From: Planctomycetota bacterium
GTDB taxonomy: Bacteria; Planctomycetota; JAJSAM01
Direction: 5' to 3'
Length of the DNA stretch: 43,700 bases
Assembly: GCA_025459285.1 (NCBI GenBank)
Contig: JALOQY010000001.1
Coordinates: 1-43,700 of the forward strand
The translations under genes were made by a program, and so were the position numbers. Shown here in pieces: positions 10,839 to 36,883 of this stretch (position 1 is the first letter of the stretch; every line of letters begins with the position of its first letter). The notes below the pieces were generated by a model. That model was given only the letters and a program-made list of their open reading frames with translations. It did not search any database and was not told the origin of the DNA.

Positions 10839-12081
10839 GGACGCTGCTCCTCGCCCTGCTGGCGCTGCCCCTTCTCCCCGCTCCCCGGACCGCACCGGCT
10901 CTCGTGCCGGTGCGGGTGGACTTCCCGGCCGGGGCGGATCCCGCCCTCGCCGTACCGGTGACCGGCGGTGTCCCGTTCCCGGCAGGGGCCGTGGCCGAAG
11001 CCTCCCGGGTCCGGCTCGTCCGGGGCGAGGAGGAGGTTCCCGCCCAGGCCGACGTCACCGCCGTCTGGCCCGACGGCAGTGTCAAGTGGCTCACCGTCTC
11101 GACCGTGCTGGCGCCGATCGCGGCACGCGACCTCGCCCTCCAGTACGGAGCGGGAGTGGAGCGAGCGGCGGTGCCGGACCCGGTCCCGGTGCCCGATTCG
11201 GCGTTCCGGGTTCGGGTCGGCGGGCAGAGCGTGGACCTCGCTCTCCGCCTCGAAGTGACCCGTGTCCGGGGTCCGGACGCCTTCGCCGGTCCGGGGCGGC
11301 GCTGTCTCGATCCGAAGGGTGCAACCGCCGGGGACACCGTGGAATCCGGATCCTTGGAGGTTGAATTACGCGGCCCGGTCCGCGCCCGGGTCCTCGTCCG
11401 CGGCGCCTTCCGGATCCCGGGGTTCGGCGCCACGCTGCCCGACCAGGTTCGGGCGGTGGAGCCGGCGGAACGCGTGCCGTTCACGTTCCGGGTCACGGTC
11501 TTCCGGGGACTCCCGATCATCCTCGTGGACCACCAGATCGTCTACACCGGCGAGCCGGACCGGGACTTCATCCGGCGCTGGGCACTCGTGCTGCCGGACC
11601 GCGGGGCGGGGACGGAGCGGCTCGTCCTGGAGCCGGGAGTCACGATCGACCGGCGGGATGGCGGCGAAACGACCATCCCCGAACCGGCCGCGCGCCTCTG
11701 CCGCGCGCCGATCGCCGGCGGCGTCGCCCTCCTGCGCAACGGGTTCGAGGACCGTCCGGCCCGCGTGGGAGGGCCGAGAGGCCGGGACGCCGCCGTCGAC
11801 TTCTGGCCGGTGGAGGCGGGTCCCTTCGACCTCTCGATGATCTCGACTACGGCGGGAACATCGGTCTTTTCGCGCTCCGGTTCCTCCTGTCGGAGACGCA
11901 CCAGGTCGGACCGGGTCCGTGGAAGGAGAGGCTCGCGGACCTCGGCATCGAGCCCCGTGAACTGCTCCTCTCGATGGAGTGGCGCGAGGGCCTCCGCCGC
12001 CACTGCGAGAGGCGCGGCGTCCGCTACGACCCCGACCGCCCCGACGAGAGCGTGCGGCGTCTGATCGCGACGTACCGCTAG
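10829..12081 (+). pseudogene. Exo-rhamnogalacturonan lyase (PcRGLX/YetA-like) family gene broken by a frameshift or internal deletion near 11833
   Basis: Signal peptide and VPVTGGVPFP...EVPAQ..TAVWPDGSVKWL N-terminal domain. After FDLS (11836) the frame turns non-coding-like, while a shifted frame 11833-12081 (LDDLDYGGNIG...LIATYR*) is coding-like. Confidence 0.65.
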
Positions 12082-13634
12082 CGGAAGCAGGCCGGCAGGC
12101 CGCGGCGGATGAAGATCCGCCAGGCCTTGCGGAAGCCCGCGCGGGCGGTCTCGGCGGCCTCGTCCTGCGTGCGGATCAGCTGGCCCATCGCCAGCGCCGT
12201 CCGGAGGGACTGCTTGCCGCGCGCGGGAAGTGCCGCGGCGAGCCGGCGCAGCTCGTGACCCGCGACGAAGGCATCCTGGTGCGCGCCGAGCAGGTCCTGC
12301 AGCGCCGTGAGGCGAGCGACGAGCGGAGGCGCCTGACGGGCGTAGAGAGGAGCGAAGGCCTCCGCGGCGTAGCGCAGGCGCTTGCCGAGGATCCGGAGCC
12401 GGTGCAGTTCCTCCGGTCGCGGGTTACGGGCGTGGATGCTCCCGCCGTAACGCGCGACCTTCCTGAACGCGCGCCGGACGATGGCCGGGGCGGCGACGAG
12501 CACCGGCTCGCGGGCCGGGAGGAGGGTCGGCCGGCGGGCCGGGCCGCGCGCCAGGAAGGCGTCGAAGCCGGTCAGGAACCGCTCGCAGCGCCGGGAGTCG
12601 AGGGTTCGCAGCAGGTCTCTCCGTGCCCGCGCCCGGCGCCTCTCGAGGCTGTGACGGAAGGGGATGAGGTGGGCGCGGTCCTCCTCGGGCAGGGGCGCGG
12701 CGTAGGCATCGATGTTGCCCAGATAGACGTCGAGGTCGCGCACGGCGCCCAGGGCGGCGGCGATGTGCCGGAGGTGGACGACGAAAGCGGTGGCCCGCTT
12801 CTCCGGGAGCGCCCCGGCGAAGGTGCGGAAGGCGGCGCGGAGCCGGCGGGTGGCCACGCGCATGTCGTGGAGCGCCTCGGGGTCTTCGCCGAGCCGGGTC
12901 CCCGGCTCCCGGGACTTCACCTTCTCGAACTGCTGGCGCAGGACGCGGAACGCCGTGTCGACGAGGCGGTCCGTGCGGCGGGGCACGACATCGAAGACGC
13001 GGTCTTTGCCGCGCGCCCGCTCGAAGAGCTCGAGCGCGAGGAGTGCGCGCTCGAGCTTGGTCCGGGTCGAAGGCTCGAGCCCCCGGACCTCGAGGCATTC
13101 CCTCGCCGCGGCATCGAGCGTTCCCGCCGGGGCTCCCCGATCCTCGATCTCCACCTCCAGGAACGACTGGACTGTGGACCGTCCGTCGCCGTCGAGGATC
13201 GCGACCCGGTCGAGTGCCAGCTCGGCGTCCGCGCCGAGTCTGAAGTGGATCCGGTGGGTCCGAATCCGTGCGACGGCTTCGATCGCCCGCCCCGACAGCA
13301 GAGGGGCGAGTCTCCGCGAGATTGCGCCGTCGGGGCGGAAGATCGTGCGGGAGGGCAGGAGGTCCTCGGTCATCTCGCCGCGGTCCCGCCAAGGGGCGAG
13401 GGAGGAGGTCACCTCCTTCACGGTGGCTTCCCGGGCGGCGTCCTTCGCACGAACGCGGAGGGAGAGGCCGGCCCGGTAGAGCCGGAAGTCGCCCGTGTCG
13501 TAGTAGGTGTCCTCGTGGCGGCTCTCGCCGGCCGCGGTGAGCGGCAACCCGCCGAGAACGGGGGTCGCGGCCAGCGCGGTGAGCTGCTCCTCGGAGGAGG
13601 CGGTCCACTTGATTTCGAGTTCGCGGCCTTCCAT
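12078..13634 (-). CDS. CYTH + CHAD domain protein (polyphosphate-associated)
   Basis: ELEIK, DTYYDT..FRL, LRVR and EVEIE (CYTH). ALHDMRVATRRLRA, VRDLDV, LHRLRILGKRLRY and QDLLG..QD (CHAD). GGAGG before ATG 13634. Confidence 0.9.
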   Translation of the reverse strand: MEGRELEIKWTASSEEQLTALAATPVLGGLPLTAAGESRHEDTYYDTGDFRLYRAGLSLRVRAKDAAREATVKEVTSSLAPWRDRGEMTEDLLPSRTIFRPDGAISRRLAPLLSGRAIEAVARIRTHRIHFRLGADAELALDRVAILDGDGRSTVQSFLEVEIEDRGAPAGTLDAAARECLEVRGLEPSTRTKLERALLALELFERARGKDRVFDVVPRRTDRLVDTAFRVLRQQFEKVKSREPGTRLGEDPEALHDMRVATRRLRAAFRTFAGALPEKRATAFVVHLRHIAAALGAVRDLDVYLGNIDAYAAPLPEEDRAHLIPFRHSLERRRARARRDLLRTLDSRRCERFLTGFDAFLARGPARRPTLLPAREPVLVAAPAIVRRAFRKVARYGGSIHARNPRPEELHRLRILGKRLRYAAEAFAPLYARQAPPLVARLTALQDLLGAHQDAFVAGHELRRLAAALPARGKQSLRTALAMGQLIRTQDEAAETARAGFRKAWRIFIRRGLPACFR

Positions 13635-13638
13635 GGCC

Positions 13639-15186
13639 TCAGGCCTCCTCGATGCGGACTTCGAGACCGAACACTTCGGCGAAGAGACCGGTCTTCTCCC
13701 GCGCTGCCCACTTGGAGAGAGCCAGATCGCCGTCGGCCCTGACCCGAAGCCGGAGCTTGTCGCCATTGCGCTCCGCGTGGACGGACCGGACGCGCTGGGC
13801 GTGATCGCGGTCGAGGAGGTCCGCCGTGCGGAGAATGGCGGCGAGCTTGCGGACCGTCTCCCGGTCCTTGACCGTAAGCGCGTCGAAGTGGTCGTGCTGG
13901 CGGGTGGGGTGGCGGCGGCGATGGTAGCGGGCAACATTCGCGGCGAGCTGGCGCTGGCGTCGATCGAGGCCCACGATGTCGGACTGAGAGATGAGGTAGT
14001 GGGAGTGTTTGTGGTGTGAATCGGCGGAGACGTAGAGGCCGACGTCGTGGAGGATGGAGGAGGCTTCCAGCAGGGACCGGGCCTCCGAGGGGAGTTCGTG
14101 CAGATCGGCGAGCTGGTCGAAGAGGGAGAGGGCGAGTTCGGTCACCTTGAGCGCATGAGGCTCGTCCAGGGCGTAGCGCCGTCCCAGGCCGAGGGCGGCG
14201 GCGCGGATCTCCCGGCGCCGGGATTCGAGGGCCCCCTTCCGCTCGAGTTCCTCTACCAGGTCGAGGAGGATGCCGTCCTTCAGGCCGACTCCGGGTACGA
14301 GGATCCGGTCCACCTTGAAGACGTCCGCGATCTTGGTGCAGACAACGGCGGCGGGCAGGATGACGTCGGCGCGATCCTCGCGGAGGTTGAACTCCGTGAC
14401 CCGCTGGCGGAAAGTGCTCGAGGCGAGCCGGAGCACGAGATCGCGCAGCGCGCCGACGGAGACGGCCCGGCATCCGCCGTCGAGAGCGGGCGGTCCCTTC
14501 AGGTCCTGGCCCGCGATCTCCGCGAGGCTCTCCGCGGAACCCCCGGTGGCGGCCACGAAGTCCACCGGCTCGCGTCCCAAGGCGGTGCGGATCCGCGCGC
14601 GGATGGCGTCCACGTAGTGGTCGAGGAGCGAGAGGAAGTCGTTGCCCTTGCCCCGGCCGGGGACGGGGAGCGCCTCGAGCAGCCGCACGGCTCCGAACGG
14701 GTAGGACTCGGCACGGACGACGTCGCCGTGGTCGATGACGAGGACCTCCACGCTGCCGCCGCCGATGTCCACCGCGGCGGAGCGCCCCTTCGAGAGATCC
14801 AGGCGGCTGCCCACGGCCCGGCGGACCAGGTGGGCCTCCTCGGCGCCGTCGATCACGGTGATGGTGAGGCCCGTCTCAGCCCGGATCCGCTCGACGACCT
14901 CGGCCGAGTCCGAGGCCTCCCGGAAGGCGCTCGTGGCGATCGCCCGGACGTGTTCCGCGCCGTGGCGCTCGATGGCCCGGAGGAACTGCCGGAGGGCGGA
15001 GATCGTGCGCCCGGCGGCGGCTTCGCCGATCCGGCCCATGAGGAACACCTGCGTGCCGAGGCGCACCGGCTCCCGGAGGTTCTCCAGGACGCGAACTTCC
15101 CCCCGGGCGCCTGCTTCCGCGACGAAGCAGCGCATGGCGTTGGTGCCGATATCGATGGCCGCGAACCGACTCACGCGAACCCCCAA
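13639..15186 (-). CDS. ppx: Exopolyphosphatase / pppGpp phosphohydrolase (Ppx/GppA)
   Basis: AAIDIGTN, ATSAFREA, GAEEA, DIGGGSVE, GLKDG, and HD domain (LHDVG..HHKHS). Start may be GTG 15174. Confidence 0.93.
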   Translation of the reverse strand: MGVRVSRFAAIDIGTNAMRCFVAEAGARGEVRVLENLREPVRLGTQVFLMGRIGEAAAGRTISALRQFLRAIERHGAEHVRAIATSAFREASDSAEVVERIRAETGLTITVIDGAEEAHLVRRAVGSRLDLSKGRSAAVDIGGGSVEVLVIDHGDVVRAESYPFGAVRLLEALPVPGRGKGNDFLSLLDHYVDAIRARIRTALGREPVDFVAATGGSAESLAEIAGQDLKGPPALDGGCRAVSVGALRDLVLRLASSTFRQRVTEFNLREDRADVILPAAVVCTKIADVFKVDRILVPGVGLKDGILLDLVEELERKGALESRRREIRAAALGLGRRYALDEPHALKVTELALSLFDQLADLHELPSEARSLLEASSILHDVGLYVSADSHHKHSHYLISQSDIVGLDRRQRQLAANVARYHRRRHPTRQHDHFDALTVKDRETVRKLAAILRTADLLDRDHAQRVRSVHAERNGDKLRLRVRADGDLALSKWAAREKTGLFAEVFGLEVRIEEA

Positions 15187-15328
15187 TGTAACTCTACAAG
15201 ATTAGCGATCCGCGCCGCTCTCCACGACGCAGATTCCCCGTCTTTATGAAAGCTTGACCGGTTGACGAACTTGGGGCCTGGCCGCAAAGTGATCAGGATG
15301 AAAGCACGGCCGGCCACACCGACTCTCG

Positions 15329-18221: not shown

Positions 18222-18827
18222 CTATTCGTGGACGCCCTCGGTCTCGAGGACGAGGTTCATGCCGGGGCTGAAGCGGACCACGATCTTCTCGGCGAACGTC
18301 CCGCGCCGCCACACCCACGTGTCGAAGTTCTCGATCTGCTCCAGAGTCATCGCGTCGGTGTCGTAGTCCCCGACCATGTGCGGCGGGCCGAGGGCAGCGT
18401 AGATCTCCCGGCGGGTCATCCCGATGCGGGCGACGCCCTTTTCGATCGCCTCGCGGGCTTCGGGGGAGAAGTCGCCGGACGACCGGGGGGAGGAGACGAC
18501 GAATTTCTCCAGGAAGTCGTCACCCGGCGCCCCGATATCGAGGTTGAAGGTCCGGCCGTTGCGGGGATCCCTCAGCACGTACTCCCTCGGTCCTCCGCTC
18601 AGCAGCAGCTCCGTGCCGACCGGCAGGAACTCGTCGACCGATTGCCAGTTTCGCCAGGTGATCTCCGTCTCGTCGAGGACCCGGAGGTTGCAGCAGGCGA
18701 AGACGGTACGTTCCGCCCCCAGCGGCTTCGGGGGGTCCCGGGGGAGCCGGATGGCCGAAAGCTCCGGGAATGTGTTGCAGGAGGTTGCGGCGAGGAGCAG
18801 GATCAGGCCCCAGAACCTCGGAAACAT
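18222..18827 (-). CDS. Lipoprotein with SmpA/OmlA(BamE)-like C-terminal motif
   Basis: AGGAGG RBS, lipobox AATSC, IGMTRREIYAALGPP...TWVW. Confidence 0.7.
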   Translation of the reverse strand: MFPRFWGLILLLAATSCNTFPELSAIRLPRDPPKPLGAERTVFACCNLRVLDETEITWRNWQSVDEFLPVGTELLLSGGPREYVLRDPRNGRTFNLDIGAPGDDFLEKFVVSSPRSSGDFSPEAREAIEKGVARIGMTRREIYAALGPPHMVGDYDTDAMTLEQIENFDTWVWRRGTFAEKIVVRFSPGMNLVLETEGVHE

Positions 18828-18921
18828 CGTCTTCCTCCTTCCGGAACGACGCGACGTCAGGCGATCATATCCGGCAAGCCGGCGATGTCAACGGCGGGAA
18901 GGACGGAGGCGGGAGGACGAC

Positions 18922-20004
18922 ATGGACCAGGCCCAGACTCCGGAGACCGTGCGTGCCCATCCGCGGGTGAGCGGCGTGAGGTTCCTGGTCGGCGCGGCGA
19001 GCTTCGTGATCGTCGTGGCGGGCCTGCAGGCCGCGCGACCCATCGTGATCCCCATCCTCATCGCGGTCTTCCTCGCCTTCGTCTGCGTCTACCCCATGCG
19101 CCGGTTGATGCGGCTCGGACTGCCTTCCTGGCTCGCCATGCCCCTGGTGTTCATCGGGCTGCTCGCGGTGCTCGCCGGTACCTCGCTCCTGGTGGGGAAC
19201 TCCGTGGCGAGTTTCACCGCCTCGTCCGGATACTGGAACGAGCGGATCGTGGACCTCGTCGATCGCGCGCTCTCCACCAGCCGTTCGCTCGGCCTGCGGA
19301 TCTCCCGGGAGAAACTCGCCGGTCTTCTCGAGACCGACCGGATCCTCACCTTCGTGTCCGACACCGTGGCCGCCGTCCTCTCGGCGCTCTCGAGCTTCAT
19401 CGTCATTCTCGTCATCTCGATCTTCCTCGTGCTCGAGGCGCACGGCCTGCCCGCGAAGCTCCGGAAGATCCACGGCGACGGCGACGCCCTCACGGGCTAC
19501 GTGGCGGTTTCGGATCGGATCCACGGCTACCTCTACCTGAAGGCCGTCACGAGTCTCTTCACCGGCGCTCTCGCCGCCGGGCTGTTCGCGATCTTCGGCG
19601 TGAGCTTCGCCGTCGTGCTCGGGCTCATCACCTTCCTGTTCAACTTCATCCCCACGATCGGCTCCGTGATCGCGGGCATACCCGCCGTGCTCCTCTGCCT
19701 CGTGGAGCACGGGCCTGGTCGCGCCCTGCTGCTCCTCGCGATCTACGTGGGCATGAACATGCTGATCGGCAACGTGCTCGAACCGAGGCTCATGGGCCGG
19801 CGGCTCGGCCTCTCGCCCGCCGTGGTGCTCCTCTCGCTCATTTTCTGGAACTGGGTCCTCGGCCCGGTGGGGATGCTGCTCTCCCCGCCGCTGACGATGA
19901 TGGTGAAGATCCTCATGGAGCAGAGCGCCGACCTGCGGGGCGCCGCGATCCTCCTCGGCACACCGGACGAGGACCCGCCGGCCCCTGACGCGCCCCCGGG
20001 CTGA
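18922..20004 (+). CDS. AI-2E family transporter (TqsA/YhhT-like)
   Basis: GGAGG RBS. FNFIPTIGS, GNVLEPRLMG..LGLSP..V.LSLIFW..VLGPVGMLLS motifs. Confidence 0.92.
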   Translation: MDQAQTPETVRAHPRVSGVRFLVGAASFVIVVAGLQAARPIVIPILIAVFLAFVCVYPMRRLMRLGLPSWLAMPLVFIGLLAVLAGTSLLVGNSVASFTASSGYWNERIVDLVDRALSTSRSLGLRISREKLAGLLETDRILTFVSDTVAAVLSALSSFIVILVISIFLVLEAHGLPAKLRKIHGDGDALTGYVAVSDRIHGYLYLKAVTSLFTGALAAGLFAIFGVSFAVVLGLITFLFNFIPTIGSVIAGIPAVLLCLVEHGPGRALLLLAIYVGMNMLIGNVLEPRLMGRRLGLSPAVVLLSLIFWNWVLGPVGMLLSPPLTMMVKILMEQSADLRGAAILLGTPDEDPPAPDAPPG

Positions 20005-20005
20005 T

Positions 20006-22255
20006 TCAGGCCCGCAGGGCCGCCGCTTCCACCACGCCCACCGTGGTCAGGTTCACGACCTGCTCCACCGTCGCTTCGTACTGGAGGACGTGGGCCGGGA
20101 GCGCCGTGCCCATGAGCACCGGGCCGATGGGGATCGCCTCGCCCATGTACTGGAGCGAGTGCATCGTGAGGTTCCCGGACTGGAGGTCGGGGAACACGAG
20201 GACGTTGGCGTCCCGATCGATGTCGGCGAAGGGGAAGCATGTCCGGCGGAGCGCGCCATCGCGTGCCGCGGCGAGCTGCATCTCCCCGTCGATCCGGAGG
20301 TCCGGCGCCATCTCGCGGGCGAGTGCCACGGCGCGGCGGACCTTCCTCGTGTGGGGGTGGTCGACGCTCCCGAAATTCGAGAACGAGAGCATCGCGACGC
20401 GGGGCTCCACGCCCAGGGCGCGGCTCGTGCGGGCCGCCAGCACGGCGATCTCAGCGAGGTCCGTGGCGTCCGGGTCGACCTGCACCGCGCAGTCCGCGAG
20501 GAACACGACGTCCCGCGGCAGCAGTACGAGGTAGTGGCTCGAGACCTTCCGCACGCCGGGCGCCGGACCGATCGCCTGGAGCATCGTGCGCAGCGTCTCC
20601 ACGTAGTGACTCGCATACCCCGCGATCAGCATGTCGGCGTCTCCGCAGCGGACCATCATCGCCGCGAAGATGTCCGGCCTCGTCACGAGCCTGGCGGCGG
20701 CATCGCGCATGACGCCGCGGCGCTTCCGCAGCTCGAAATAGGCCTCCACACAGGCCCCGAACCGGGGGCTGCGCTCCGGCTCCACGATCGGTACCCCCCC
20801 GAGGTCCAGGGAAAGCCGGTCGGCCTTCTCGCGGATCTCGCGCTCCCGGCCGAGCAGCACGGGGCTCGCGATCCCCTCGTCGAGGAGGATGCCGCAGGCG
20901 CGGAGGATCGCTTCGCTCGTCCCCTCGGAGAAGACCACGCGGAGTTTCGCCTGCCGGGCGCGGAGGATCAGCCCCCGCATGGTCTCGCGGCCGGTCCCGA
21001 TCCTCGTCGTGAGGATCTCGTGGTAGGCCGCCGCCTCCAGTGGTCGCCCCGCCACCTCCTCCCGGACGGCCTGCTCGGCCACGGCGGCCGACTCGCGCAC
21101 GAGGATCCGCGGGTCGATGGGCTTCGGCAGGAGGTAGCTCGGGCCAAACGCCATCGTCTCGTCCGCGTAGGCCCGCACGACCTCCTCCGGCACCTCCTCG
21201 CGCGCAAGGTCGGCGAGAGCCCGGGCCGCGGCGAGGAGCATCCCCTCGGTGATGCTGGTGGCCTGCACGTCGAGAGCGCCCCGGAACACATAGGGCACGG
21301 ACAGCAGGTCGAGGATGGCGTTCGGATACTGGCCGAGGCCGGTGGCCACGATCACGTCCTTGCGGCAGGCCCGGGCCACCCCGTAGTCGATCTCCGGCTC
21401 CGGGGTGGCCAGGGCGAAGACGATGGGGAACCGGGCCATGGACCGCACCATCTCCGGGGTGAGGACCCCGGCGGCGGAGGCCCCGACGAAAACGTCCGCG
21501 CCTCGAAGCCCTTCGCCAAGGGACGCCGAAGGGTGCGGGCGGGCGAACTCCCGCTGGTAGGCGTGGAGGTCCGTCCGGTCGGAATGGAGGAGGCCGTCCC
21601 GATCGTAGACGAGCAGGTTCTCCGGCCGGACGCCGAGCTTCACGAACAGACGGGCGCAGCCGGTGCCCACGGTCCCCGCTCCGCAGAGGACGACGCGCGC
21701 GCCGTCGATCCGCTTGTCGGTCAGATCGAGGGCGTTGAGCAGCGCCGCCGCGGCCACCACCGCCGTGCTGTAGAGGTTTTCGTGGAACACGGGGATCCGG
21801 AGGCGCGCGAGCAGGCGCTCGTAGATGATCAATCCCTCGGGCGCCCGGATGTCCTTCAGGTTCACGGCCCCGAATGTCGGCTCGAGCATCGCCACGGTCT
21901 CCACGAACTTCTCCGGATCCGTGGTGTCGATCTCGAGGTCGAAGACGTCGAGGTCCGCGAGCCGCTTGAACAGCACGGCCATGCCCTCCTGCATGGGCTT
22001 CGCGGCGAGCGGACCGACGGCCCCGAGCCCGGGGACGGCGGTACCGTTCGTCACGACCCCCACGAGGTTCCCCCGCGAGGTGAAGCGGAAGGCCGCCGAG
22101 GGATCGGCGGCGATCTCCTCCGCGGGGAACGATGCCCCGGGGAGGTAGGCGAGCCGCATCTCCCGCGGCGTGACGCAGGGCTTCGCCGGTCGGACCTCGA
22201 TCTTCCCGGGCCGGCCCGCGGCGTGATACTCGAGCGAATCGTGTCTCCGGATCAT
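20006..22255 (-). CDS. maeB: MaeB-type malic enzyme/phosphotransacetylase fusion (749 aa) with substituted active site
   Basis: LEYH..RPGKIEV, GNLV.VVTNGTAV.GLG, FALATPEPEI, PKP.DPR, then a PTA domain (VVFSEG, FLADC, AMLSFSNFGS, DGEMQ, ANVLVFPDLQSGN). ATGA overlap with the upstream gene and GGAGG RBS. Confidence 0.9.
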   Translation of the reverse strand: MIRRHDSLEYHAAGRPGKIEVRPAKPCVTPREMRLAYLPGASFPAEEIAADPSAAFRFTSRGNLVGVVTNGTAVPGLGAVGPLAAKPMQEGMAVLFKRLADLDVFDLEIDTTDPEKFVETVAMLEPTFGAVNLKDIRAPEGLIIYERLLARLRIPVFHENLYSTAVVAAAALLNALDLTDKRIDGARVVLCGAGTVGTGCARLFVKLGVRPENLLVYDRDGLLHSDRTDLHAYQREFARPHPSASLGEGLRGADVFVGASAAGVLTPEMVRSMARFPIVFALATPEPEIDYGVARACRKDVIVATGLGQYPNAILDLLSVPYVFRGALDVQATSITEGMLLAAARALADLAREEVPEEVVRAYADETMAFGPSYLLPKPIDPRILVRESAAVAEQAVREEVAGRPLEAAAYHEILTTRIGTGRETMRGLILRARQAKLRVVFSEGTSEAILRACGILLDEGIASPVLLGREREIREKADRLSLDLGGVPIVEPERSPRFGACVEAYFELRKRRGVMRDAAARLVTRPDIFAAMMVRCGDADMLIAGYASHYVETLRTMLQAIGPAPGVRKVSSHYLVLLPRDVVFLADCAVQVDPDATDLAEIAVLAARTSRALGVEPRVAMLSFSNFGSVDHPHTRKVRRAVALAREMAPDLRIDGEMQLAAARDGALRRTCFPFADIDRDANVLVFPDLQSGNLTMHSLQYMGEAIPIGPVLMGTALPAHVLQYEATVEQVVNLTTVGVVEAAALRA

Positions 22256-25200
22256 GACCATTCCTCCGAACCCGCCGAAAGCGGGAATCTCCCGAGCGTC
22301 GCCTCGAGCGCCGGGAGGAGAACCGGCACGGGGCGCACCTGAAGGATGAAGACACGGCTCCTCTCGATGCCGAACTCCACGTCCACCGGATGGCCGAAGA
22401 CCTCCTCGAGACGGGCGGCAAGGCGGACGAGTTCGGCGAGTTCCACGTACTCGAGCGCCGGCCGCAGGCGCTGGTGATAGAGGCTCTCCGCGCGGATCGT
22501 GCCCCGACCGGCGCGGCGGTCGAAGACGATCCGTTCCCGTTTGTCCGCCACCGCGTAGCTCATCCGGAAGCCGCCCCGCGTCAGGTCTCCCTCCTTCGAG
22601 ACGGTGACGTGGTCCGCGGCGACCGTGCCGGAGACGATGCCCTCTCCGAGCCCGAGTCCGGCATTGATGACCATCTCGCCCTCCTCCCCTCGCGCCACGT
22701 CCACGGTGAGCAGCACTCCGGACACCCGGGAGTCGACCATGCGCTGGACGAGGACTCCGCCGCCCCCGGCGCCGGGGCCGAAGAGAGTCCGGTTGTGGAT
22801 CGCGCGCTCCGTCCAGAGACCGCTCCAGCAGTTCGCGAGCGTTTCGAGCAGGGCCGCCTCGCCCCGGACGAAGAGGAAGGTCTCGAACTCGCCGGCGCGG
22901 GACGCGGCCTCCGCGTCCTCCTCGCGGGAGGAGGAGCGTACGGCCACGAACGTCTCCTCCCCGTCCGGTCCGAGGGCCCGGTAGGCCGAGCCGATCTCCT
23001 CGGCGAGGTCCTTCGGGGGGCGAACCTCGGCGAAGAGCCCGCGGATGAGCGCGGCCTTCTCGGCGGCGGTGGGCCCGTCGCGCGCGAGCACGGTGTCGAT
23101 GGCCGCGCGGAGGCTCCCGGACCGGCTCCGCTCGGCGGCGAGTCGCGGAGCGACCTCCGCCAGCGGACAGTCGAGAACGCGGCGCAGCGCGGCGTCGGTG
23201 ACCGTGAACCAGGGCGGCACGAACTCGGCCCCGAGGATGCGGGCGGTCTCCGCGAGGTTCGCCGCCTTGGCCCCCGCCAGCGGCAGCAGTTCGAACCCGC
23301 CGTCGGCGGCGGTGAGGATGGTCCGGCCGGCAAGGCGCCGCTCGCGCTCCGCGTCCCGGGCCGCAAGGTCTCTCGCCGGTCGCGCGAGGTCCTCGTGCCC
23401 GCCCTCCGGCGTTCCGAGCAGGGCGTCCGCGCGCGCCGCCCGGCGCAGCAGATGGCGGAGGTGGGGGTGCTCCGGTGAGATGGAGATCGCGGCGGCGTCG
23501 CGCAGTTCGTGGAGCCTCCGGCGGGCAAGTACATCCAGCGGGGCGGTGGAAGGCGCCCCTCCCGCGGGACCGGCGAGGGCCCTCGTGGCCCGTAGGGCTT
23601 CGAGGCGGGGGGCCAGCACCTCGAAGAGGCCGATGGCGCGCGGAATGCGGTCCTCGGCCCTCCGGAAGGCCCTCCGGCGGCGTGCCTCGAGTTCGCGGGC
23701 GGTCTGCGCGACGAAGGTCGGGACCACCGCCGTGACGGCGGGGTTCTGTCCGAGGGTCGCGAGGAGTTCCTCGCGATCCGTGACGGTCTCCCCGAGCAGG
23801 AGCTCCCGGACCGCGAACCGCGCGAGCACGGGATCGACGAGGCGCCCGAGCACTTTCGCCACCTGATGTCGGGCGCGCAATCGCCGGCCGCGGAGCACGA
23901 GCGCGTCGGCATCCGACGGGGCGGCGCCGAGGCACTGCTCGGCCTTCGCGAGGTGGCGCAACCCCTCGGCGAGGGCGAGGGTGTCACGGTCCTGGCCCAG
24001 GACTCGCAGGGTTCCGGCGGTGGCGTTGAGGACGAGGAGGTCCCCTTCGACGAGTCGGTGTTCGCGTTCCCGGAGGTTCCGGCGTTCGCCGATCCGGAAG
24101 CCGCGGACCTCGTATTCCTCCTCCCGATACTCGGGAACGGTGAAGAGGAGGATCGGAGCTCCGGAGGCATCCGCCGTCCAGCGTCCGGGGATCACCAGCG
24201 CGGGTTTGCGGAACTGGAGCGCGATGAGCCCGGCGTGGGAGAGGGCGCCCCCTCCGGTGGAGACGACGCCCGCCGCGCGGTAGAGGCCCGGGGTATCCTC
24301 CGGCCGGACCGCGGCCTTCACGAGGATGGCGCCCTCGAGGGCTTCCGCCGGGGTATCGCCGTTCCCGAAGACGGCGTGGCCGGAGGTCCGCCCGGGAGCC
24401 GCCGGCAGTCCGGTGATCACCCTCTCCCCGGGAAGTGGCCCCGGCTCCCGGACCAGATCCCCGGCGGCGATTTCGCGGAGCAGCCGCCGGGCCTCCTCGC
24501 GGGCCTCGGACGAGGACGGCTCGACCTCCACCAGGGGGAAGTTGGCCCGGCGGAGCTTCCCGGCGAGAGCCGGCAGCGGCACGCCGGGGCACCGGGCGAG
24601 TCGGATGATCCCCGCCTCGTCGCGCAGCACCGACAAGGCCAGTCCTTCCCCGGGCAGACCCAGCCGCGCGCTGAGGACGTCACGGCCCGCGACGTGGCCA
24701 ATGGTCCGGAACGACAGCGTCCGCGCCACGGGTCCCGTGAGGCGGGCGCAGGCCACCGCCTCGGCCACCGCGGCCTCGCCCTCCGCGAGGAGCTCCGCGA
24801 ACCGCACCGCCTCGTGCCGTCGGCCGGAGGCGGGCCGCGGGCCCTCCGGCCCCGGGATGATCTCGCCGCGGGCCAGGGCTTCCGCGAGTGGGGTGAGGAC
24901 CGTCTCTTCGAGCCGGATCTGCCCGAGGGCCCGCCTCCGGTCTTCCCCCCCGAACGATGGCTCGGGCAGGCGAAGGGCGGCGAGTCCGGCCGCGAGACGG
25001 TCGAGGAGCCCCGGGAGGGGCGGGCCGCCGAAGCGGTCCCCCGGGGGGCCCTCGCCGGTCCACGGGATCTCCTTCTCGCCGAGGGGACCCCGCTCGATCG
25101 CGGCGAGGACGCCCCGGCGGTCCTTCGTGAGGAGCGCGCGCAGGGGAAGCGCGCCGTGGCGCGCGAAGGACGCCGCCCACTCCTCCGCCAGCGTCTCCCG

Positions 25201-27030
25201 GGCCCCGGGCGGGAGATCCAGGGAGCCGAGGACCCAGTCGAGATCCATGAGATACGGCGCGAGGCGCAGCATCGCCGCGGCCCGGTCGCAGAGCGTCCCG
25301 AGGTCCACGACCGACTCCTTGTCCGCCCGCGCGTGGACCCGCGTGCCGCGGACTTCCACGTCGAAGCCGAGCGCGGCGAGGAAGGCGCGAAGAGACTCGA
25401 GGCCCGGTGCCGGGTGGGCGTCCAGCTCGTAGTTGCTGACCCCGAAGAACTCGAGGTCCACCATCCCGCCCCGCAGTGGGGGCGAGAGGTCGAGGCGCAG
25501 GAACGCCGGGTGGTTGCGGAACGAGAGATAGACGTGGACCTCGTTGCCGTAGGAGTGGACCTCCACCCAGGGGAACTTCTCCTGTCCGGCGAGGAGTTGT
25601 CGCGCGATGCCGTCGAGGGCGGCGCGCACGGGCCAGGGGAGGCCCGCGTCGCCGGAGAAGTCGGCGTACTTCACCACCTTCGCGCTGGCGAGGCGCCCCT
25701 TCGTCGCCACGACGACGTCGGCGGTGCGGCGCGGCGCCCGCCCGGCGCCGACGAACGAGAAGCCGAGGCGCAGACCGCGCTGGTGGAGATAGCGCTTCAG
25801 GCCGTGCAGCGTGCGGACCTCCCCCAGGTTCCGAGGGTCCTCGAACGCGTTCACGAGCCGGGTCAGCTCCGGGGACAGATGCTCCCGGCCGGCCTCGCGC
25901 CCGAGTTCCCGCGCGATGGCGTCGCGGAGATCCCGCCACGCCCCGGGGAGGAGCGCGCACTCTTCCGAGAGGTTCGCGAACAGCGCGATGAAATCTTCAA
26001 CGACCGCGCCCATGTCGGCGACGAGCGACTGTACGCGTTCCTTCGTCAGGGGCGCGAGATCGAGGATCCGCTCGAGAAGGGCGGCGTGACGGAGGTTGAG
26101 CGTGCGGAAGCGGTCCACGGGGGCGCCGGTTTCGCGCGCGTTGTCCGGACTGCCGGCCTCCCCGCCGTGGGCGAAGAAGATGACCGATTCGCCGGCGCGG
26201 CGGAGCCCGTCCGCGCCATCGAGGAGGGAGGCGGCGTAGGGGGGAACGAACAGCGGCAGGGCGCCGCCGGTGACGAAGCCCGCGAGGCGCTTCGCCTCGA
26301 TGCCGTGGTTCACCCTGGCCCAGCCGAGAGAGGCGACGACCTCGCGGAGGAGCTCGAAGCCGGCGACTTCCTCCGCCCGGCGCATGGCCGCGACGGTGCC
26401 GGCCGTCAGGTGCGAAAGATCGAGGTGCGACGCCCGCGTGTAGTCGAGATACCCGGCCAGGAAGTCGTGATCCGCGGGGGCGAGAAGCTGCCGGGCGGTC
26501 TCTGGTGGGGCGGGTTCGCCGGAAAGATCGAGGATGCGGGCGGCCAGCCTCCGGACGCTCTCGTCGCGGGCGTCGAGGAAGTGGCCGGTCAGCGGCCCCG
26601 CGCGGGCGAGGATGCGCCCGGCGTCGGCGATGGCGTCCGGTCCGGCGAAGGGCGAGTCATCGATCTCGACGCGCTCCGCGATCGCGGCGAGGATCGCCCC
26701 GCCGGGGAGTGCGTCCCGCTCCGCGGCGAGACGCAGCGCGCGGCGGGCGAGTGAGGGGTCGCGCGCGCCAAGGAGCGATCTGAAGAGGGGCCAGGGATCC
26801 GCGAGACCGGCGGCGGCCTCGGCGAGGAGGTCGAAGACCGGCACCAGGACCGCGCCCGCCCGCTCGCCGAGGAGGTCGCCGAGAGGGTGGAGCGGGGCCG
26901 GGTCCGGAAGCGGGAAGTACCGGCGGAGTCGATCGCAGTGGCCGGCGACATCCACGGGATCGGCCGTCGCGAGCCGCGCTGCGGCGGCCACGCGCCCGAC
27001 AAGGTCGGCGATCTCGTCCCGCGAGGACAT
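22252..27030 (-). CDS. 1592-aa PEP synthase/PPDK-family dikinase-like protein with order unknown N-terminus, phospho-His domain, ATP-grasp
   Basis: His domain GLPAAPG..SG...GVVSTGGGALSHAGLIA (His932). C-terminal nucleotide-binding domain GAKAANL, VAVRSS..ED...S.AGEFETFL, VLVQRMV..SGV, GLGEGIVSG, DVEF, ILQVRP. Confidence 0.88.
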   Translation of the reverse strand: MSSRDEIADLVGRVAAAARLATADPVDVAGHCDRLRRYFPLPDPAPLHPLGDLLGERAGAVLVPVFDLLAEAAAGLADPWPLFRSLLGARDPSLARRALRLAAERDALPGGAILAAIAERVEIDDSPFAGPDAIADAGRILARAGPLTGHFLDARDESVRRLAARILDLSGEPAPPETARQLLAPADHDFLAGYLDYTRASHLDLSHLTAGTVAAMRRAEEVAGFELLREVVASLGWARVNHGIEAKRLAGFVTGGALPLFVPPYAASLLDGADGLRRAGESVIFFAHGGEAGSPDNARETGAPVDRFRTLNLRHAALLERILDLAPLTKERVQSLVADMGAVVEDFIALFANLSEECALLPGAWRDLRDAIARELGREAGREHLSPELTRLVNAFEDPRNLGEVRTLHGLKRYLHQRGLRLGFSFVGAGRAPRRTADVVVATKGRLASAKVVKYADFSGDAGLPWPVRAALDGIARQLLAGQEKFPWVEVHSYGNEVHVYLSFRNHPAFLRLDLSPPLRGGMVDLEFFGVSNYELDAHPAPGLESLRAFLAALGFDVEVRGTRVHARADKESVVDLGTLCDRAAAMLRLAPYLMDLDWVLGSLDLPPGARETLAEEWAASFARHGALPLRALLTKDRRGVLAAIERGPLGEKEIPWTGEGPPGDRFGGPPLPGLLDRLAAGLAALRLPEPSFGGEDRRRALGQIRLEETVLTPLAEALARGEIIPGPEGPRPASGRRHEAVRFAELLAEGEAAVAEAVACARLTGPVARTLSFRTIGHVAGRDVLSARLGLPGEGLALSVLRDEAGIIRLARCPGVPLPALAGKLRRANFPLVEVEPSSSEAREEARRLLREIAAGDLVREPGPLPGERVITGLPAAPGRTSGHAVFGNGDTPAEALEGAILVKAAVRPEDTPGLYRAAGVVSTGGGALSHAGLIALQFRKPALVIPGRWTADASGAPILLFTVPEYREEEYEVRGFRIGERRNLREREHRLVEGDLLVLNATAGTLRVLGQDRDTLALAEGLRHLAKAEQCLGAAPSDADALVLRGRRLRARHQVAKVLGRLVDPVLARFAVRELLLGETVTDREELLATLGQNPAVTAVVPTFVAQTARELEARRRRAFRRAEDRIPRAIGLFEVLAPRLEALRATRALAGPAGGAPSTAPLDVLARRRLHELRDAAAISISPEHPHLRHLLRRAARADALLGTPEGGHEDLARPARDLAARDAERERRLAGRTILTAADGGFELLPLAGAKAANLAETARILGAEFVPPWFTVTDAALRRVLDCPLAEVAPRLAAERSRSGSLRAAIDTVLARDGPTAAEKAALIRGLFAEVRPPKDLAEEIGSAYRALGPDGEETFVAVRSSSREEDAEAASRAGEFETFLFVRGEAALLETLANCWSGLWTERAIHNRTLFGPGAGGGGVLVQRMVDSRVSGVLLTVDVARGEEGEMVINAGLGLGEGIVSGTVAADHVTVSKEGDLTRGGFRMSYAVADKRERIVFDRRAGRGTIRAESLYHQRLRPALEYVELAELVRLAARLEEVFGHPVDVEFGIERSRVFILQVRPVPVLLPALEATLGRFPLSAGSEEWS

Positions 27031-34171: not shown

Positions 34172-36760
34172 TCAGCGACGGAAGAGGACCTCGGTTTCCT
34201 CGCCGGAGCGGACCGTGACGGGCAGGGAGTTGCCGTAGTGCTTGCCGGACCACGTGCGGAGATCGAAGGTGCCCGGCGGGATGCCGTCGAGGAGGAACGA
34301 GCCGTCCGCGGCCACCGGGGTCCAGAGGTCGAGGATCGCGATGCCGATCAGGAGCGACTCGGAGGCGGCCGGTGGCTCCACGCTGCCCCGGATCGTGCCG
34401 CCGGGCTGCGCGATGAGCATGCCGAGATCGAGCGTCTCCCCGGCCTTCACGGTCTGTACCCCGAGGTCGCGGACCGCGAACCCCCCGACGACGAGGCGCA
34501 TCCGGTAGCGGCCGGCGGGAACGTCCCGCACGGTGAAGTCCCGTCCGTCGAACTCGGCGGGCACCCGCGACCAGGAGCCGGGTCGGGCCGGAGGCCCGTC
34601 TTGCCCGGCGAGGAGCAGCGCGACGCCGCCGAGGCGGGGAGGCATGAACAGGCGTCCGGTGATCCCCGGAGAGAGCGCGGCGAGCGCGAAGTCCGCTTGC
34701 TCCTCCAACGGTTCGAGGCGGACCTGCCGGCCAGCCCTGCCGTAGCCCACCGCGCTCACCGTGACGTGGCAGCCTTCCTCCCCGGTCGCTGGCCCGCGCT
34801 GGGACCAGGTGCCGTCCGGGCCGGTCCTCGTCTCGTAGACGGCCGCGCCGCCGAAGTCGACACGCACGCGCGCGCCGGGGATCGGTTCCCCGGCCTCGTC
34901 GGCGATCCGGCCGCGCACCTCGACGCCGGCGCGGGAGAGGACGAGGTCGGGAAGGTCGAGCCGCTCCTCCGCGGGCAGTGCGACCAGGACCGCCCGGGTG
35001 GGGGCGTAGCCGAGGGCGAAGGCCACGACGGAGGCCGTCCCGGCCGGGAGCCTCGCGGCCTCGAACCGCCCGTCGGCACCGGCCTCGAATGGTCGCCCGC
35101 CGATCAGTACCACCGCCCCCGGCACCGGCCGTGCCTGGTCGTCGATCATCCGGCCGCGCACCGAGGCCGTGCCCTCGACGCCGGTGCGCAGGACGATGCG
35201 GCCGGTCTCCGGGCCTCCGGCCCACGTGGCGGCCTCGGCGAGGATGACTCCCGACCTCGGGTCGATCACGCAGAAGGCCATGCGACCCAGGGGCGGCAGG
35301 CCTTCGAACGAGAAACTCCCGTTCGCTCCCGTGGGCGCCTCGCGCCGGAGGTCCGGCGGGCGGGGCGGTCGGTCCTCCGGCACCGTGCCGACATGGAGCG
35401 AAAGGAGGACGCGCGCCCCGGCCACCGGCCGATCGTCGGGCGCCCGGAGGACGACGCCGGAGACGGTCCGCTCGGGCAGGACCGTGAGGTCGTGGCGGGT
35501 CGTCGTCTTGTCCCCGACGGCCAGGAGTCTCGAGGTTGGTGGACGGCCTTCCACGCCGAGGAGCCAGGGCACGCGCGACCCCGGCCGGCGCGCCTCCGCG
35601 TACCAGATGCCCGGGGACAGCCACACCTCGTAGTCGCCCTTGGGCTCGGCGGAGATTCGGAGGGCCCCGCCGTCTTCGGACAACGGATCCGCATCGAGGG
35701 TCCGGACTCGGAAGAAGGCGACCTCGGCCCGGCCCACGCGCACCGGTTCCGGTGAGCCGTCGAGGACGAACCCCTCTACCCGCGCGCGTCTGGTGGCGGT
35801 CAGGGTGAGCTCCGGTGGCGCGCGGCCGGCCTCGACGGCGAACTCCCCGGGGGTGAACGCTTGTCCGGCGGCACTCCCGCCGATGCGGTAGCGGCCGCGC
35901 ACCAGGCCGCGCAGGATGAAGCGTCCGCCCCCGGTCAGTTCCACCTCGCAGGGCGGATCCGTCCGGATGGCGAGCCCGTCCCCCTTCGGCGCCCGGCCCG
36001 TGACCTCGATCGTGTCGAGGAGGCGGACGTCGATCCCGTCGACGGGGCAGGCCACGGCGGGGACGACGATCGTCTCCCGGCGCTCGGCGCGGACCTCCAG
36101 ATCGGTGAGGCCGGCGGGCAGGGACGACAGGCGGAAGACACCCGCGGCGTCGGTGCGGGCCTCGATCCGCTCGAGGGCCTCGCTCGAAAATCGCCCGAGC
36201 ATCGCCTCGTAGTAGGGTCGCAGCACGCCGCCCACGTCGGCGGTCACGACGGCGCCGGCCACGGGGGCGCCGTCCTCGCCGACCACCCGGCCCGAGACCG
36301 CGCCGCTCTCCATGAGCCGGATCACGCAGCAGACCGGCTCCCCGCCGATCCGCACGGCGGGCACGAAGCCCCGGGCATCCCCGGCCCGGGCGTCGAGGAG
36401 ATACGCCCCGGGCGCGAGTTCCCGGAAGGTGAAGCGGCCATCGGGACCGGCGGTGGCCCGGGGTGCGGGCGGGCCGTCCGGCCGGGGCCAGAGGTCTTCT
36501 CCGAGGAGGATCGCGCGGACCTCGGCTCCCGGCGCGGGCTCTCCAGCGAACGTGTGTACGACCCCGGACAGCGGCGCGGCCGAAGGCGGTGTGGCGGGGA
36601 GGGGCGGGTTCTCCGCCTCGGCTTCCCGCGCGGGGACCGTGGCCCGGCCGGCGGCCGAAGAGTCTCTTCCGGGTGTTCCCGAGGTGGCGACAAGCCAGAC
36701 GATCCCACCGAGCCCGGCAACGAAGACGACGAGGAGGAAGACCCGCCTTTCAAGCCCCAT
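34172..36760 (-). CDS. Carboxypeptidase-regulatory-like (beta-sandwich) repeat protein, N-terminal TM anchor
   Basis: About 8 repeats of xSGxVxxxxGxPxxGAxV...TxxDGxFxxxxLxxGxY. Confidence 0.85.
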   Translation of the reverse strand: MGLERRVFLLVVFVAGLGGIVWLVATSGTPGRDSSAAGRATVPAREAEAENPPLPATPPSAAPLSGVVHTFAGEPAPGAEVRAILLGEDLWPRPDGPPAPRATAGPDGRFTFRELAPGAYLLDARAGDARGFVPAVRIGGEPVCCVIRLMESGAVSGRVVGEDGAPVAGAVVTADVGGVLRPYYEAMLGRFSSEALERIEARTDAAGVFRLSSLPAGLTDLEVRAERRETIVVPAVACPVDGIDVRLLDTIEVTGRAPKGDGLAIRTDPPCEVELTGGGRFILRGLVRGRYRIGGSAAGQAFTPGEFAVEAGRAPPELTLTATRRARVEGFVLDGSPEPVRVGRAEVAFFRVRTLDADPLSEDGGALRISAEPKGDYEVWLSPGIWYAEARRPGSRVPWLLGVEGRPPTSRLLAVGDKTTTRHDLTVLPERTVSGVVLRAPDDRPVAGARVLLSLHVGTVPEDRPPRPPDLRREAPTGANGSFSFEGLPPLGRMAFCVIDPRSGVILAEAATWAGGPETGRIVLRTGVEGTASVRGRMIDDQARPVPGAVVLIGGRPFEAGADGRFEAARLPAGTASVVAFALGYAPTRAVLVALPAEERLDLPDLVLSRAGVEVRGRIADEAGEPIPGARVRVDFGGAAVYETRTGPDGTWSQRGPATGEEGCHVTVSAVGYGRAGRQVRLEPLEEQADFALAALSPGITGRLFMPPRLGGVALLLAGQDGPPARPGSWSRVPAEFDGRDFTVRDVPAGRYRMRLVVGGFAVRDLGVQTVKAGETLDLGMLIAQPGGTIRGSVEPPAASESLLIGIAILDLWTPVAADGSFLLDGIPPGTFDLRTWSGKHYGNSLPVTVRSGEETEVLFRR

Positions 36761-36800
36761 GAGAATCTCTGACGCCCCCCGCCCCCCGTACTTCCATACA

Positions 36801-36883
36801 GGGGACGTACGTACCTAATCACCTTTTTCGACAGCCGGTGAGCCGGGGGAAGGCCAAAAAGGTGAAAAGGTACGTACGTCCCC
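36801..36883. repeat. 28-bp inverted repeat (26/28) with 27-bp spacer; REP/MITE-like element or hairpin
   Basis: Left arm ggggacgtacgtacctaatcaccttttt (36801-36828), right arm aaaaaggtgaaaaggtacgtacgtcccc (36856-36883). Confidence 0.85.

Follow-up and report, generated by a model that had tools for sequence, protein, structure and literature searches.

A putative two-protein system of a remodelled MaeB-like protein and an orphan dikinase in a Planctomycetota bacterium

Harding et al. 2021 (PMC7902834) describe the hybrid malic enzyme MaeB of Bdellovibrio: K107 is its general acid/base, E149 and D174 belong to the catalytic site where Mg2+ is bound, N300 and V330 contact the nicotinamide, and the tautomerisation tyrosine, Y52, comes from the other monomer. 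In this study, a MaeB-like protein of 749 aa, P0001, was analysed together with the 1592-aa dikinase encoded directly upstream of it, referred to here as the giant. Both genes lie in the first 43,700 nucleotides (positions 1 to 43,700, forward strand) of contig JALOQY010000001.1 from a Planctomycetota bacterium (assembly GCA_025459285.1), and this whole stretch is called the window. Described proteins outside the malic enzymes are also relevant to the pair. Trypanosomatid “prozymes” are paralogs without catalytic activity that form part of active enzymes as subunits, and the plant enzymes GWD and PWD are built from a large N-terminal acceptor-binding region, a phosphohistidine domain and a C-terminal nucleotide-binding domain, in this order. 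Plant GWD is described in PMC12892837 as having a His domain, homologous to phosphoenolpyruvate (PEP) synthase and PPDK. P0001 and the giant look like an undescribed two-protein system, neither an ordinary nor a decaying malic enzyme. We are confident of three points: P0001 is something other than an ordinary malic enzyme, strong selection acts on it, and it is functionally tied to the giant. Neither a MaeB clade with remodelled catalytic residues nor the gene pair was found described in the literature search; members might be included in the trees and alignments that supplement PMC12704298.

The P0001 gene occupies 20006..22255 of the minus strand, on which all coordinates below lie unless stated otherwise. 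It runs from an ATG at 22255-22253 to a stop codon at 20008-20006, and the frame is open over 749 codons, in agreement with the initial annotation, which had reported no stop or frameshift. Pfam identified malic_N (PF00390, 46 bits), Malic_M (PF03949, 65 bits) and PTA_PTB (PF01515, 312 bits) domains. In this architecture, and in its length, P0001 is like the MaeB proteins of Bdellovibrio (6zng, 6znj) and E. coli (8jzo, 9kru). The best solved-structure matches in HMMER, both end to end, were Bdellovibrio MaeB 6zng_A (E 3.6e-194) and then E. coli MaeB 8jzo_A (E 1.2e-190). The alignment to 6zng is gap-free across query residues 6-228, so a shifted register cannot restore the lost residues described below, and no alternative Lys, Glu or Asp stands in register for the replaced positions. 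A later single-residue gap precedes the motif GLGQYPNAILD. The alignment to E. coli MaeB, which had been proposed as a check, was also run; its numbering (K94, E136, D162) fits with an offset of +2, again without a shifted register.

The malic-enzyme-like half of P0001 (approximately residues 1-410, 21026..22255) has a remodelled substrate, metal and nicotinamide pocket. The motif changes listed in the initial annotation were all found when the codons were re-translated. The range given there, 21300-22150, does fall inside this half but covers only part of it. Met92 (21980..21982) replaces the general acid/base Lys (Bdellovibrio K107, E. coli K94), with KPVMEGK changed into KPMQEGM. Lys134 (21854..21856) replaces the metal-site Glu (Bdellovibrio E149), with NLEDI changed into NLKDI. 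Glu159-Asn160 (21776..21781) replace an Asp-Asp pair (Bdellovibrio D174-D175), the second Asp of which is a metal ligand, with HDDQHGT changed into HENLYST, and GLGQYPNAILD (21308..21340) stands at the canonical GRSDYPNQVNN. In the alignment, the Bdellovibrio residues K107, E149, D174, Y52, N300 and V330 correspond to Met92, Lys134, Glu159, Tyr37, Thr284 and Ile314. Three canonical Asn residues, namely N300 and the Asn-Asn of PNQVNN, are thus represented by Thr284, Leu315 and Asp316; the role of the Asn pair is presumably the one it has in human ME2. Of the metal site Glu-Asp...Asp, only Asp135 is kept. Tyr37 (22145..22147), the tyrosine that acts in trans in MaeB, and the GxGxx[GA] dinucleotide-binding loop, here GAGTVG (GxGxxG; 21665..21682), are both retained as initially noted, and so is the Asp after strand 2 (Tyr217-Asp218). 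Because the general-base Lys, two of the three metal ligands and three Asn are exchanged, malic activity appears to be lost, and P0001 very probably does not catalyse metal-dependent oxidative malate decarboxylation.

The substitutions were seen in independent data. Contigs of the metagenome runs X2 and X3 had no differences from P0001 at the key codons, and run X4 had 16 differences, at least one of which is silent (21779, third base of the Glu159 codon). The NCBIfam model PRK12861 gave P0001 693 bits against a cut-off of 1178; since the canonical paralog of the same genome and a canonical representative likewise score below it, with 819 and 822 bits, this cut-off does not discriminate.

The replaced positions were then compared across the relatives of P0001 in three sets, among which proteins may overlap: 120 proteins listed from a search of 5.8 billion clustered proteins (67-75% identity, query included), 64 complete genes at loci in genomes and 49 at loci in metagenomes. 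Neither Lys at position 92 nor Glu at position 134 occurred in any sequence (0/120, 0/64 and 0/49 for each), and Asp at position 160 occurred in 0/120, 0/64 and 1/49. Within the 120 proteins, position 92 is variable and mostly hydrophobic (Met/Val/Ile/Leu/Thr). The other replacement residues are shared by nearly all of them (Lys134 in 115, Glu159 in 118, Asn160 in 117 and Asp316 in 118), and Asp135 is kept in 119. Tyr37 is invariant in the first two sets (120/120 and 64/64) and present in 45/49 metagenome sequences; the GxGxxG loop was found in 51/52 sequences and the Tyr-Asp after strand 2 in 47/52. At position 134, Ser, Leu, Arg, Met, Asn or Gln occurs in some members, and a side branch (P0121, P0123 and P0124) reads VLS[NH][VI], with neither Lys134 nor Asp135. 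A diverged member, L161:10752-12992 (plus strand; 50% identity to P0001), carries KPFLEGT, TLQNI and NLDLYSE; it has no GxGxxG loop, yet it still lies downstream of a giant gene.

The clade is under strong purifying selection and is not decaying. Nei-Gojobori ratios of nonsynonymous to synonymous substitution (dN/dS), another check named in the initial annotation, were calculated for 12 pairs; the twelfth was saturated, and the 11/11 computable pairs gave 0.03-0.12 (0.029-0.117 in the malic-enzyme half and 0.034-0.116 in the PTA half). The mean alignment identity was 77% over 66 members from many phyla. The malic-enzyme half, with a mean column entropy of 0.70, is at least as constrained as the PTA half (0.85). 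Decay is excluded by the dN/dS values together with the clade-wide conservation. The initial proposal of selection for a non-catalytic or altered function, in preference to decay, was therefore borne out by the conserved replacements, the dN/dS values, the entropy, and the monophyly and co-existing canonical MaeB described below. One copy in an Eisenbacteria-labelled metagenome-assembled genome (L078:10001-12222) has frame changes and stops; either this copy is broken or the assembly is at fault.

HMMER, run exhaustively over 1.84 billion cluster representatives, separated the clade from canonical MaeB, with 989 bits (62% identity) for a full-length representative of the clade compared to 653 bits (42%) for the best canonical MaeB. 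Among the 32 full-length representatives, 26 were canonical MaeBs with Lys, Glu and Asp-Asp unchanged and three belonged to the P0001 clade; two were degenerate in other ways (P0143 and P0152) and one did not have the region. Given 26 canonical sequences out of 32, the motif replacements in P0001 are more than chance. The degenerate motifs of P0143 (KPVAEGR/HGGCCGL) and P0152 (KPLLEGR/DLVGM/DSERWGQ) are different from those of P0001, so MaeB catalysis may have been lost more than once. In a quick maximum-likelihood tree (43 rows, 10 truncated representatives dropped, midpoint rooting only), all 21 clade members were on one side of a branch of length 0.62 with a Shimodaira-Hasegawa-like approximate likelihood ratio (SH-aLRT) of 100. 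The clade stood among the MaeB representatives, adjoining the canonical paralog of its own genome, and its tips were mostly shorter than those of canonical MaeB. P0001 is a member of a distinct, slowly evolving clade derived from hybrid MaeB-type malic enzymes.

The PTA_PTB domain of P0001 (residues 428-738, 20042..20974) has no Pta Ser-Arg. The motif NDLSRG...D[IV] was present in 8/8 Pta sequences from related genomes that exceed the TIGR00651 cut-off. At its position P0001 has HVLQYE, with Gln725-Tyr726 (20078..20083) in place of Ser-Arg, the clade has H-L-[LI]-Q-Y-G, and the canonical MaeBs compared also lack Ser-Arg. In Methanosarcina Pta, Ser309-Arg310 (M. thermophila numbering) affect kcat, as stated in PMC6461089. 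Moreover, P0001 reached 237-240 bits with TIGR00651, under the curated cut-off of 311.2. Since Ser-Arg is absent, the domain is not a Pta, as in MaeB. The claim that the entire PTA domain is kept thus stands for the fold but fails for the catalytic Ser-Arg, which all MaeBs compared lack.

Ligand contacts of this half were mapped by hand onto the P0001-6zng alignment, with the residues taken from PMC7902834. Six of 8 Bdellovibrio acetyl-CoA contacts were counted as kept: R535, Y576, N718, P735 and Q748 appear unchanged as R510, Y551, N695, P712 and Q725, which are invariant or nearly so in the clade alignment. T614 is changed into Ala590, and the acetyl-contacting Y721-K722 into Met698-His699 (20159..20164); the clade motif is GNL[TA][ML][HQN], so that Met/Leu-His stands where MaeB has Tyr-Lys. 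Conservation does not extend to the effector residues of the E. coli type, R475, R482 and Y510 (PMC12704298), whose counterparts in P0001 are R470, K477 and C502. It is plausible that the PTA domain of P0001 binds a ligand of the coenzyme A (CoA) type with a different acyl end.

The decisive context was the gene directly upstream, which was missed in the initial annotation of the MaeB-like gene. The giant gene (22252..27030) encodes 1592 aa from an ATG at 27030, in a frame open to 27249. Its stop codon TGA (22254-22252) overlaps the ATG of P0001 in an ATGA sequence (22252..22255), which suggests translational coupling of the two genes. With one genome per species scanned, the giant gene was directly upstream of a MaeB-like gene, on the same strand, at 79/79 genome loci, all of them in metagenome-assembled genomes, labelled as more than 10 phyla. 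Start and stop codons overlap at 28 of the 42 loci with complete giants (as ATGA at 22), and at none of the 42 does the gap exceed 221 nt. The linkage also held from the side of the giant. A metagenome search with its central domain gave 80 loci, of which 55 were testable, having the giant end and at least 400 nt beyond it; at the other 25, the contig stops before the C-terminus of the giant (20) or has less than 400 nt left (5). A MaeB-like gene lay downstream at 55/55 testable loci: 53 of these genes begin within 400 nt and exceed 55% identity, another begins at 446 nt, and the remaining one is a diverged member with 50% identity. Unlike canonical MaeB, a P0001-type gene is thus always encoded together with a giant dikinase.

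The linkage is confined to the pair. None of the other window genes was conserved at the 79 loci (0/12), de novo clustering returned minority neighbours only, and a wider conserved operon was rejected. A promoter and terminator scan was uninformative, with 0 promoter-like sites and 3 terminator-like sites compared to 1.7 expected. The module is rare and patchy in distribution. A P0001-type protein was found in 1/301 sampled genomes of its own phylum, that of P0001 itself, the next best match being 51% identical, and the domain of the giant occurred only in the seed genome in samples of another carrier's phylum (1/201) and class (1/151). Because the module is too rare, co-occurrence by taxon sampling is uninformative, and the metagenome loci were used for the reciprocal linkage. 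Two pairs of MaeB-like proteins are nearly identical across phylum labels: L075 and L035 (92%; genomes labelled Zixibacteria and Desulfatiglandales), and L015 and L019 (98.5%; labelled Deltaproteobacteria and Calditrichaceae). Such copies, 92-98% identical, suggest horizontal transfer or binning error.

The giant carries a PEP-utilizers mobile (swivel) domain at residues 899-952 (24175..24336; PF00391, E 1.2e-9) and a C-terminal PPDK_N ATP-grasp at residues 1250-1569 (22324..23283; PF01326, E 1.8e-54). His932 (24235..24237), in the motif T-G-G-x-x-L-S-H-A, is invariant in 42/42 aligned giants. With this His and the ATP-grasp intact, the giant looks active. The most conserved N-terminal stretch, residues 396-669 (25024..25845), contains an invariant HGLKRYLHQ, H-P, R-x-D-K and D-W. 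Residues 1-890 had no Pfam match, and a PEP-utilizers_C barrel was not detected by Pfam. Matches of the giant in NCBIfam and the PDB covered only the swivel and ATP-grasp domains, and the PEP synthase and PPDK family scores of 192-200 bits lay far below the cut-offs of 598-740.

The N-terminal region was also modelled. The model of residues 25-865 had a mean predicted local distance difference test score (pLDDT) of 86.9 and a predicted template modelling score of 0.83, and consists of HEAT-like repeats, a small beta unit, a helical bundle and two alpha/beta domains. Foldseek with this model found no solved-fold match at E <= 1e-3, and a wide VIA search returned helical bundles only, with Z up to 11.7, at model residues 268-408. 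With the model of residues 396-669 (pLDDT 89.6), the best Foldseek match was 2plg_A (E 2.6e-3) and the best VIA match MotA (Z 6.6), both within noise. ESM Atlas gave no usable match for residues 1-890, and Pfam found weak HEAT_2 matches in 7/42 giant N-terminal regions and nothing else. A missing fold match in such models does not establish a new fold. None of the PADLOC defence models matched the giant, and P0001 had weak E1-like Rossmann matches only. A complex prediction for giant residues 286-865 with residues 1-412 of the malic-enzyme half, run without controls, scored 0.00 twice and gave no answer.

In its PPDK_N domain and in the mobile-domain His of TGG..LSHA, the giant is like PEP synthase, PPDK and rifampicin phosphotransferase. 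It is unlike them in that the swivel precedes the ATP-grasp, in that Pfam detects no PEP-utilizers_C, and in that neither a Pfam family nor a clear solved fold matches its N-terminal stretch of about 860 residues. The order of an N-terminal region, a swivel His and a C-terminal nucleotide domain is shared with plant GWD and PWD. Unlike these, the giant is bacterial, has no starch-binding module found by Pfam and is paired with a MaeB-derived protein, and no sequence similarity was seen beyond the two shared dikinase domains.

The genomes that carry the module also contain canonical enzymes. In the P0001 genome, a canonical MaeB paralog of 771 aa with every canonical motif (47% identity) is encoded on contig C55, and a canonical malic enzyme or MaeB was present in 5/5 other module genomes. 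In two of the module genomes, the top canonical hit, at 67-68% identity, spanned only the malic-enzyme half, and a separate PTA-like stretch adjoined it. Canonical PPDK was matched in 5/5 module genomes and was over the cut-off in four; in the genome of the window it is split over two contig ends (G000 C386 and C304) and falls under the cut-off. PEP synthase over the cut-off was found in 0/5 module genomes examined, and a phosphotransacetylase over the TIGR00651 cut-off was not found in the genome of the window, which is 88% complete. A role of the module as a PPDK or PEP synthase replacement was rejected, with canonical PPDK in 5/5. Since the canonical malic enzymes and PPDK co-exist with it, the module would add to them and not replace them. 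At some of the loci, the neighbours hint at the same part of metabolism. At 7/159 loci, for example L116:4009-5727, the gene directly upstream of the giant encodes a canonical large malic enzyme (NF010052; 747 bits, cut-off 326), and genes like those for the beta subunit of Na+-translocating decarboxylase and the carboxyltransferase alpha subunit lie beside the module at 11/159 loci, which include L012, L017, L021, L026, L041 and L054.

We consider it probable that P0001 is a MaeB derivative which does not decarboxylate malate, still binds a dinucleotide, and probably a CoA compound, and acts as an obligate sensing or scaffolding partner of the dikinase. P0001 would be made together with the 1592-aa protein, as its obligate partner. 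The giant would transfer the beta-phosphate of ATP to His932 by means of its C-terminal ATP-grasp, and then to an acceptor. In the most likely version, P0001 would bind NAD(P)(H) and a CoA compound or a C3/C4 acid, would oligomerise through its PTA domain as MaeB does, and would gate or organise the dikinase; the physical association, the retained ligand binding and the regulatory role are what we infer. Sensing or scaffolding is favoured because position 92 is only hydrophobic, a side branch has neither Lys134 nor Asp135, and L161 has no GxGxxG. Three observations weigh against it. The new polar set of Lys134, Asp135, His158, Glu159, Asn160, Asp316 and Tyr37 is strongly conserved, which also fits a new catalytic site and favours an enzyme. 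The giant has its own N-terminal region of about 860 residues with invariant His, Arg, Asp and Lys, so a partner may be unneeded for acceptor binding, and the role of P0001 would be left undefined. In addition, both apparent fusions of giant and MaeB, P0271 (2410 aa) and P0124, were rejected as Rosetta-stone evidence; the ATP-grasp end is lost and the linker is junk-like, and they are therefore probably frameshift read-throughs. The search for longer fused proteins is weak evidence in itself.

The enzyme favoured by the polar set would be a neofunctionalised one, with the remodelled pocket as a new NAD(P)-dependent, metal-independent site or as the acceptor site for the phospho-His swivel. It would act on a substrate or product of the dikinase, such as a phosphorylated C3/C4 acid, with Lys134 in place of the metal charge. 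The replacement residues are conserved like a catalytic site (115-120 of 120), the GxGxxG loop persists in 51/52 sequences, the malic-enzyme half is the more constrained one, and the occasional neighbours come from the malate/oxaloacetate/pyruvate node. However, the idea of Lys134 as a metal-charge substitute, already raised in the initial annotation, is weakened by the members and the side branch that lack this residue; position 92 is merely hydrophobic and variable, the GxGxxG loop was lost in L161, the acceptor could be held by the large conserved N-terminal region of the giant, and a plain PEP-forming role is not needed where ordinary PPDK is present in 5/5 genomes. We regard this enzyme as rather unlikely, though a serious candidate. 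Similarly doubtful, in our opinion, is a new two-component dikinase at the malate/oxaloacetate/pyruvate/PEP node, in which the former malic pocket, lacking its metal and general base, would hold the acceptor for phospho-His932, either a nucleotide or an acid of the C3/C4 type, or else use NAD(P)(H) to convert the phosphorylated product. A prozyme-like subunit seems a good deal less probable. P0001 would then join canonical MaeB in mixed dimers or hexamers, donate Tyr37 and tune malic activity, in line with the catalytic Tyr of MaeB that comes from the other monomer (PMC7902834), with the invariance of Tyr37 (120/120), and with canonical malic enzyme or MaeB in 6/6 genomes examined. Like prozymes, P0001 is an enzyme paralog with lost catalytic residues and strong purifying selection; unlike them, its linked partner is an unrelated enzyme and not an active paralog. 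The gene is linked to the giant (79/79 and 55/55), while canonical MaeB sits on another contig, shares merely 47% identity and is represented in two module genomes by a best match to the malic-enzyme half only. Finally, the intact fold, three-domain architecture and open frame, and the database name “malate dehydrogenase (oxaloacetate-decarboxylating)(NADP+)” of its relatives, would suit a malic enzyme of the ordinary kind working with other residues, or a gene in decay after recent inactivation. The former is opposed by the gap-free alignment with no alternative residues in register and by 26/26 canonical representatives that keep theirs, the latter is contradicted by the dN/dS values and the clade-wide conservation, and both are very improbable.

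Other genes of the window were noted in passing. An AI-2E family transporter (18424-20004, plus strand) converges on P0001, with the two stops 2 nt apart (20004 and 20006); its first approximately 190 residues have no Pfam match and may reflect an over-extended start. At 12081-15201 (minus strand), a CYTH-CHAD protein stands beside a Ppx/GppA phosphatase as a polyphosphate-related pair. An 880-aa protein with five CarboxypepD_reg-like repeats is encoded at 34175-36814 (minus strand), near a PQQ-type beta-propeller, a 4Fe-4S protein and an aldo/keto reductase.

Because databases label P0001-type proteins as NADP-malic enzyme or phosphate acyltransferase, metabolic reconstructions credit them with a reaction that is probably beyond them. 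This concerns reconstructions of many uncultured Acidobacteriota, Calditrichota, Ignavibacteria-type Bacteroidota, Eisenbacteria, Krumholzibacteriota and Desulfobacterota. The P0001 clade would be a natural example of an allosteric scaffold, the malic enzyme dimer with its PTA ring, that was re-used after the loss of catalysis. The giant dikinase, an orphan with its swivel His before the ATP-grasp and with the invariant HGLKRYLHQ motif, deserves a study of its own, and the strict pairing with it offers a testable handle on an ATP-dependent phosphotransfer or regulatory device at a central metabolic junction. If the pair were a two-component dikinase, it would bring a reaction driven by the conversion of ATP to AMP that is new to the enzyme catalogue, encoded on a cassette that is rare and spreads horizontally across more than 10 phyla of sediment and soil bacteria.

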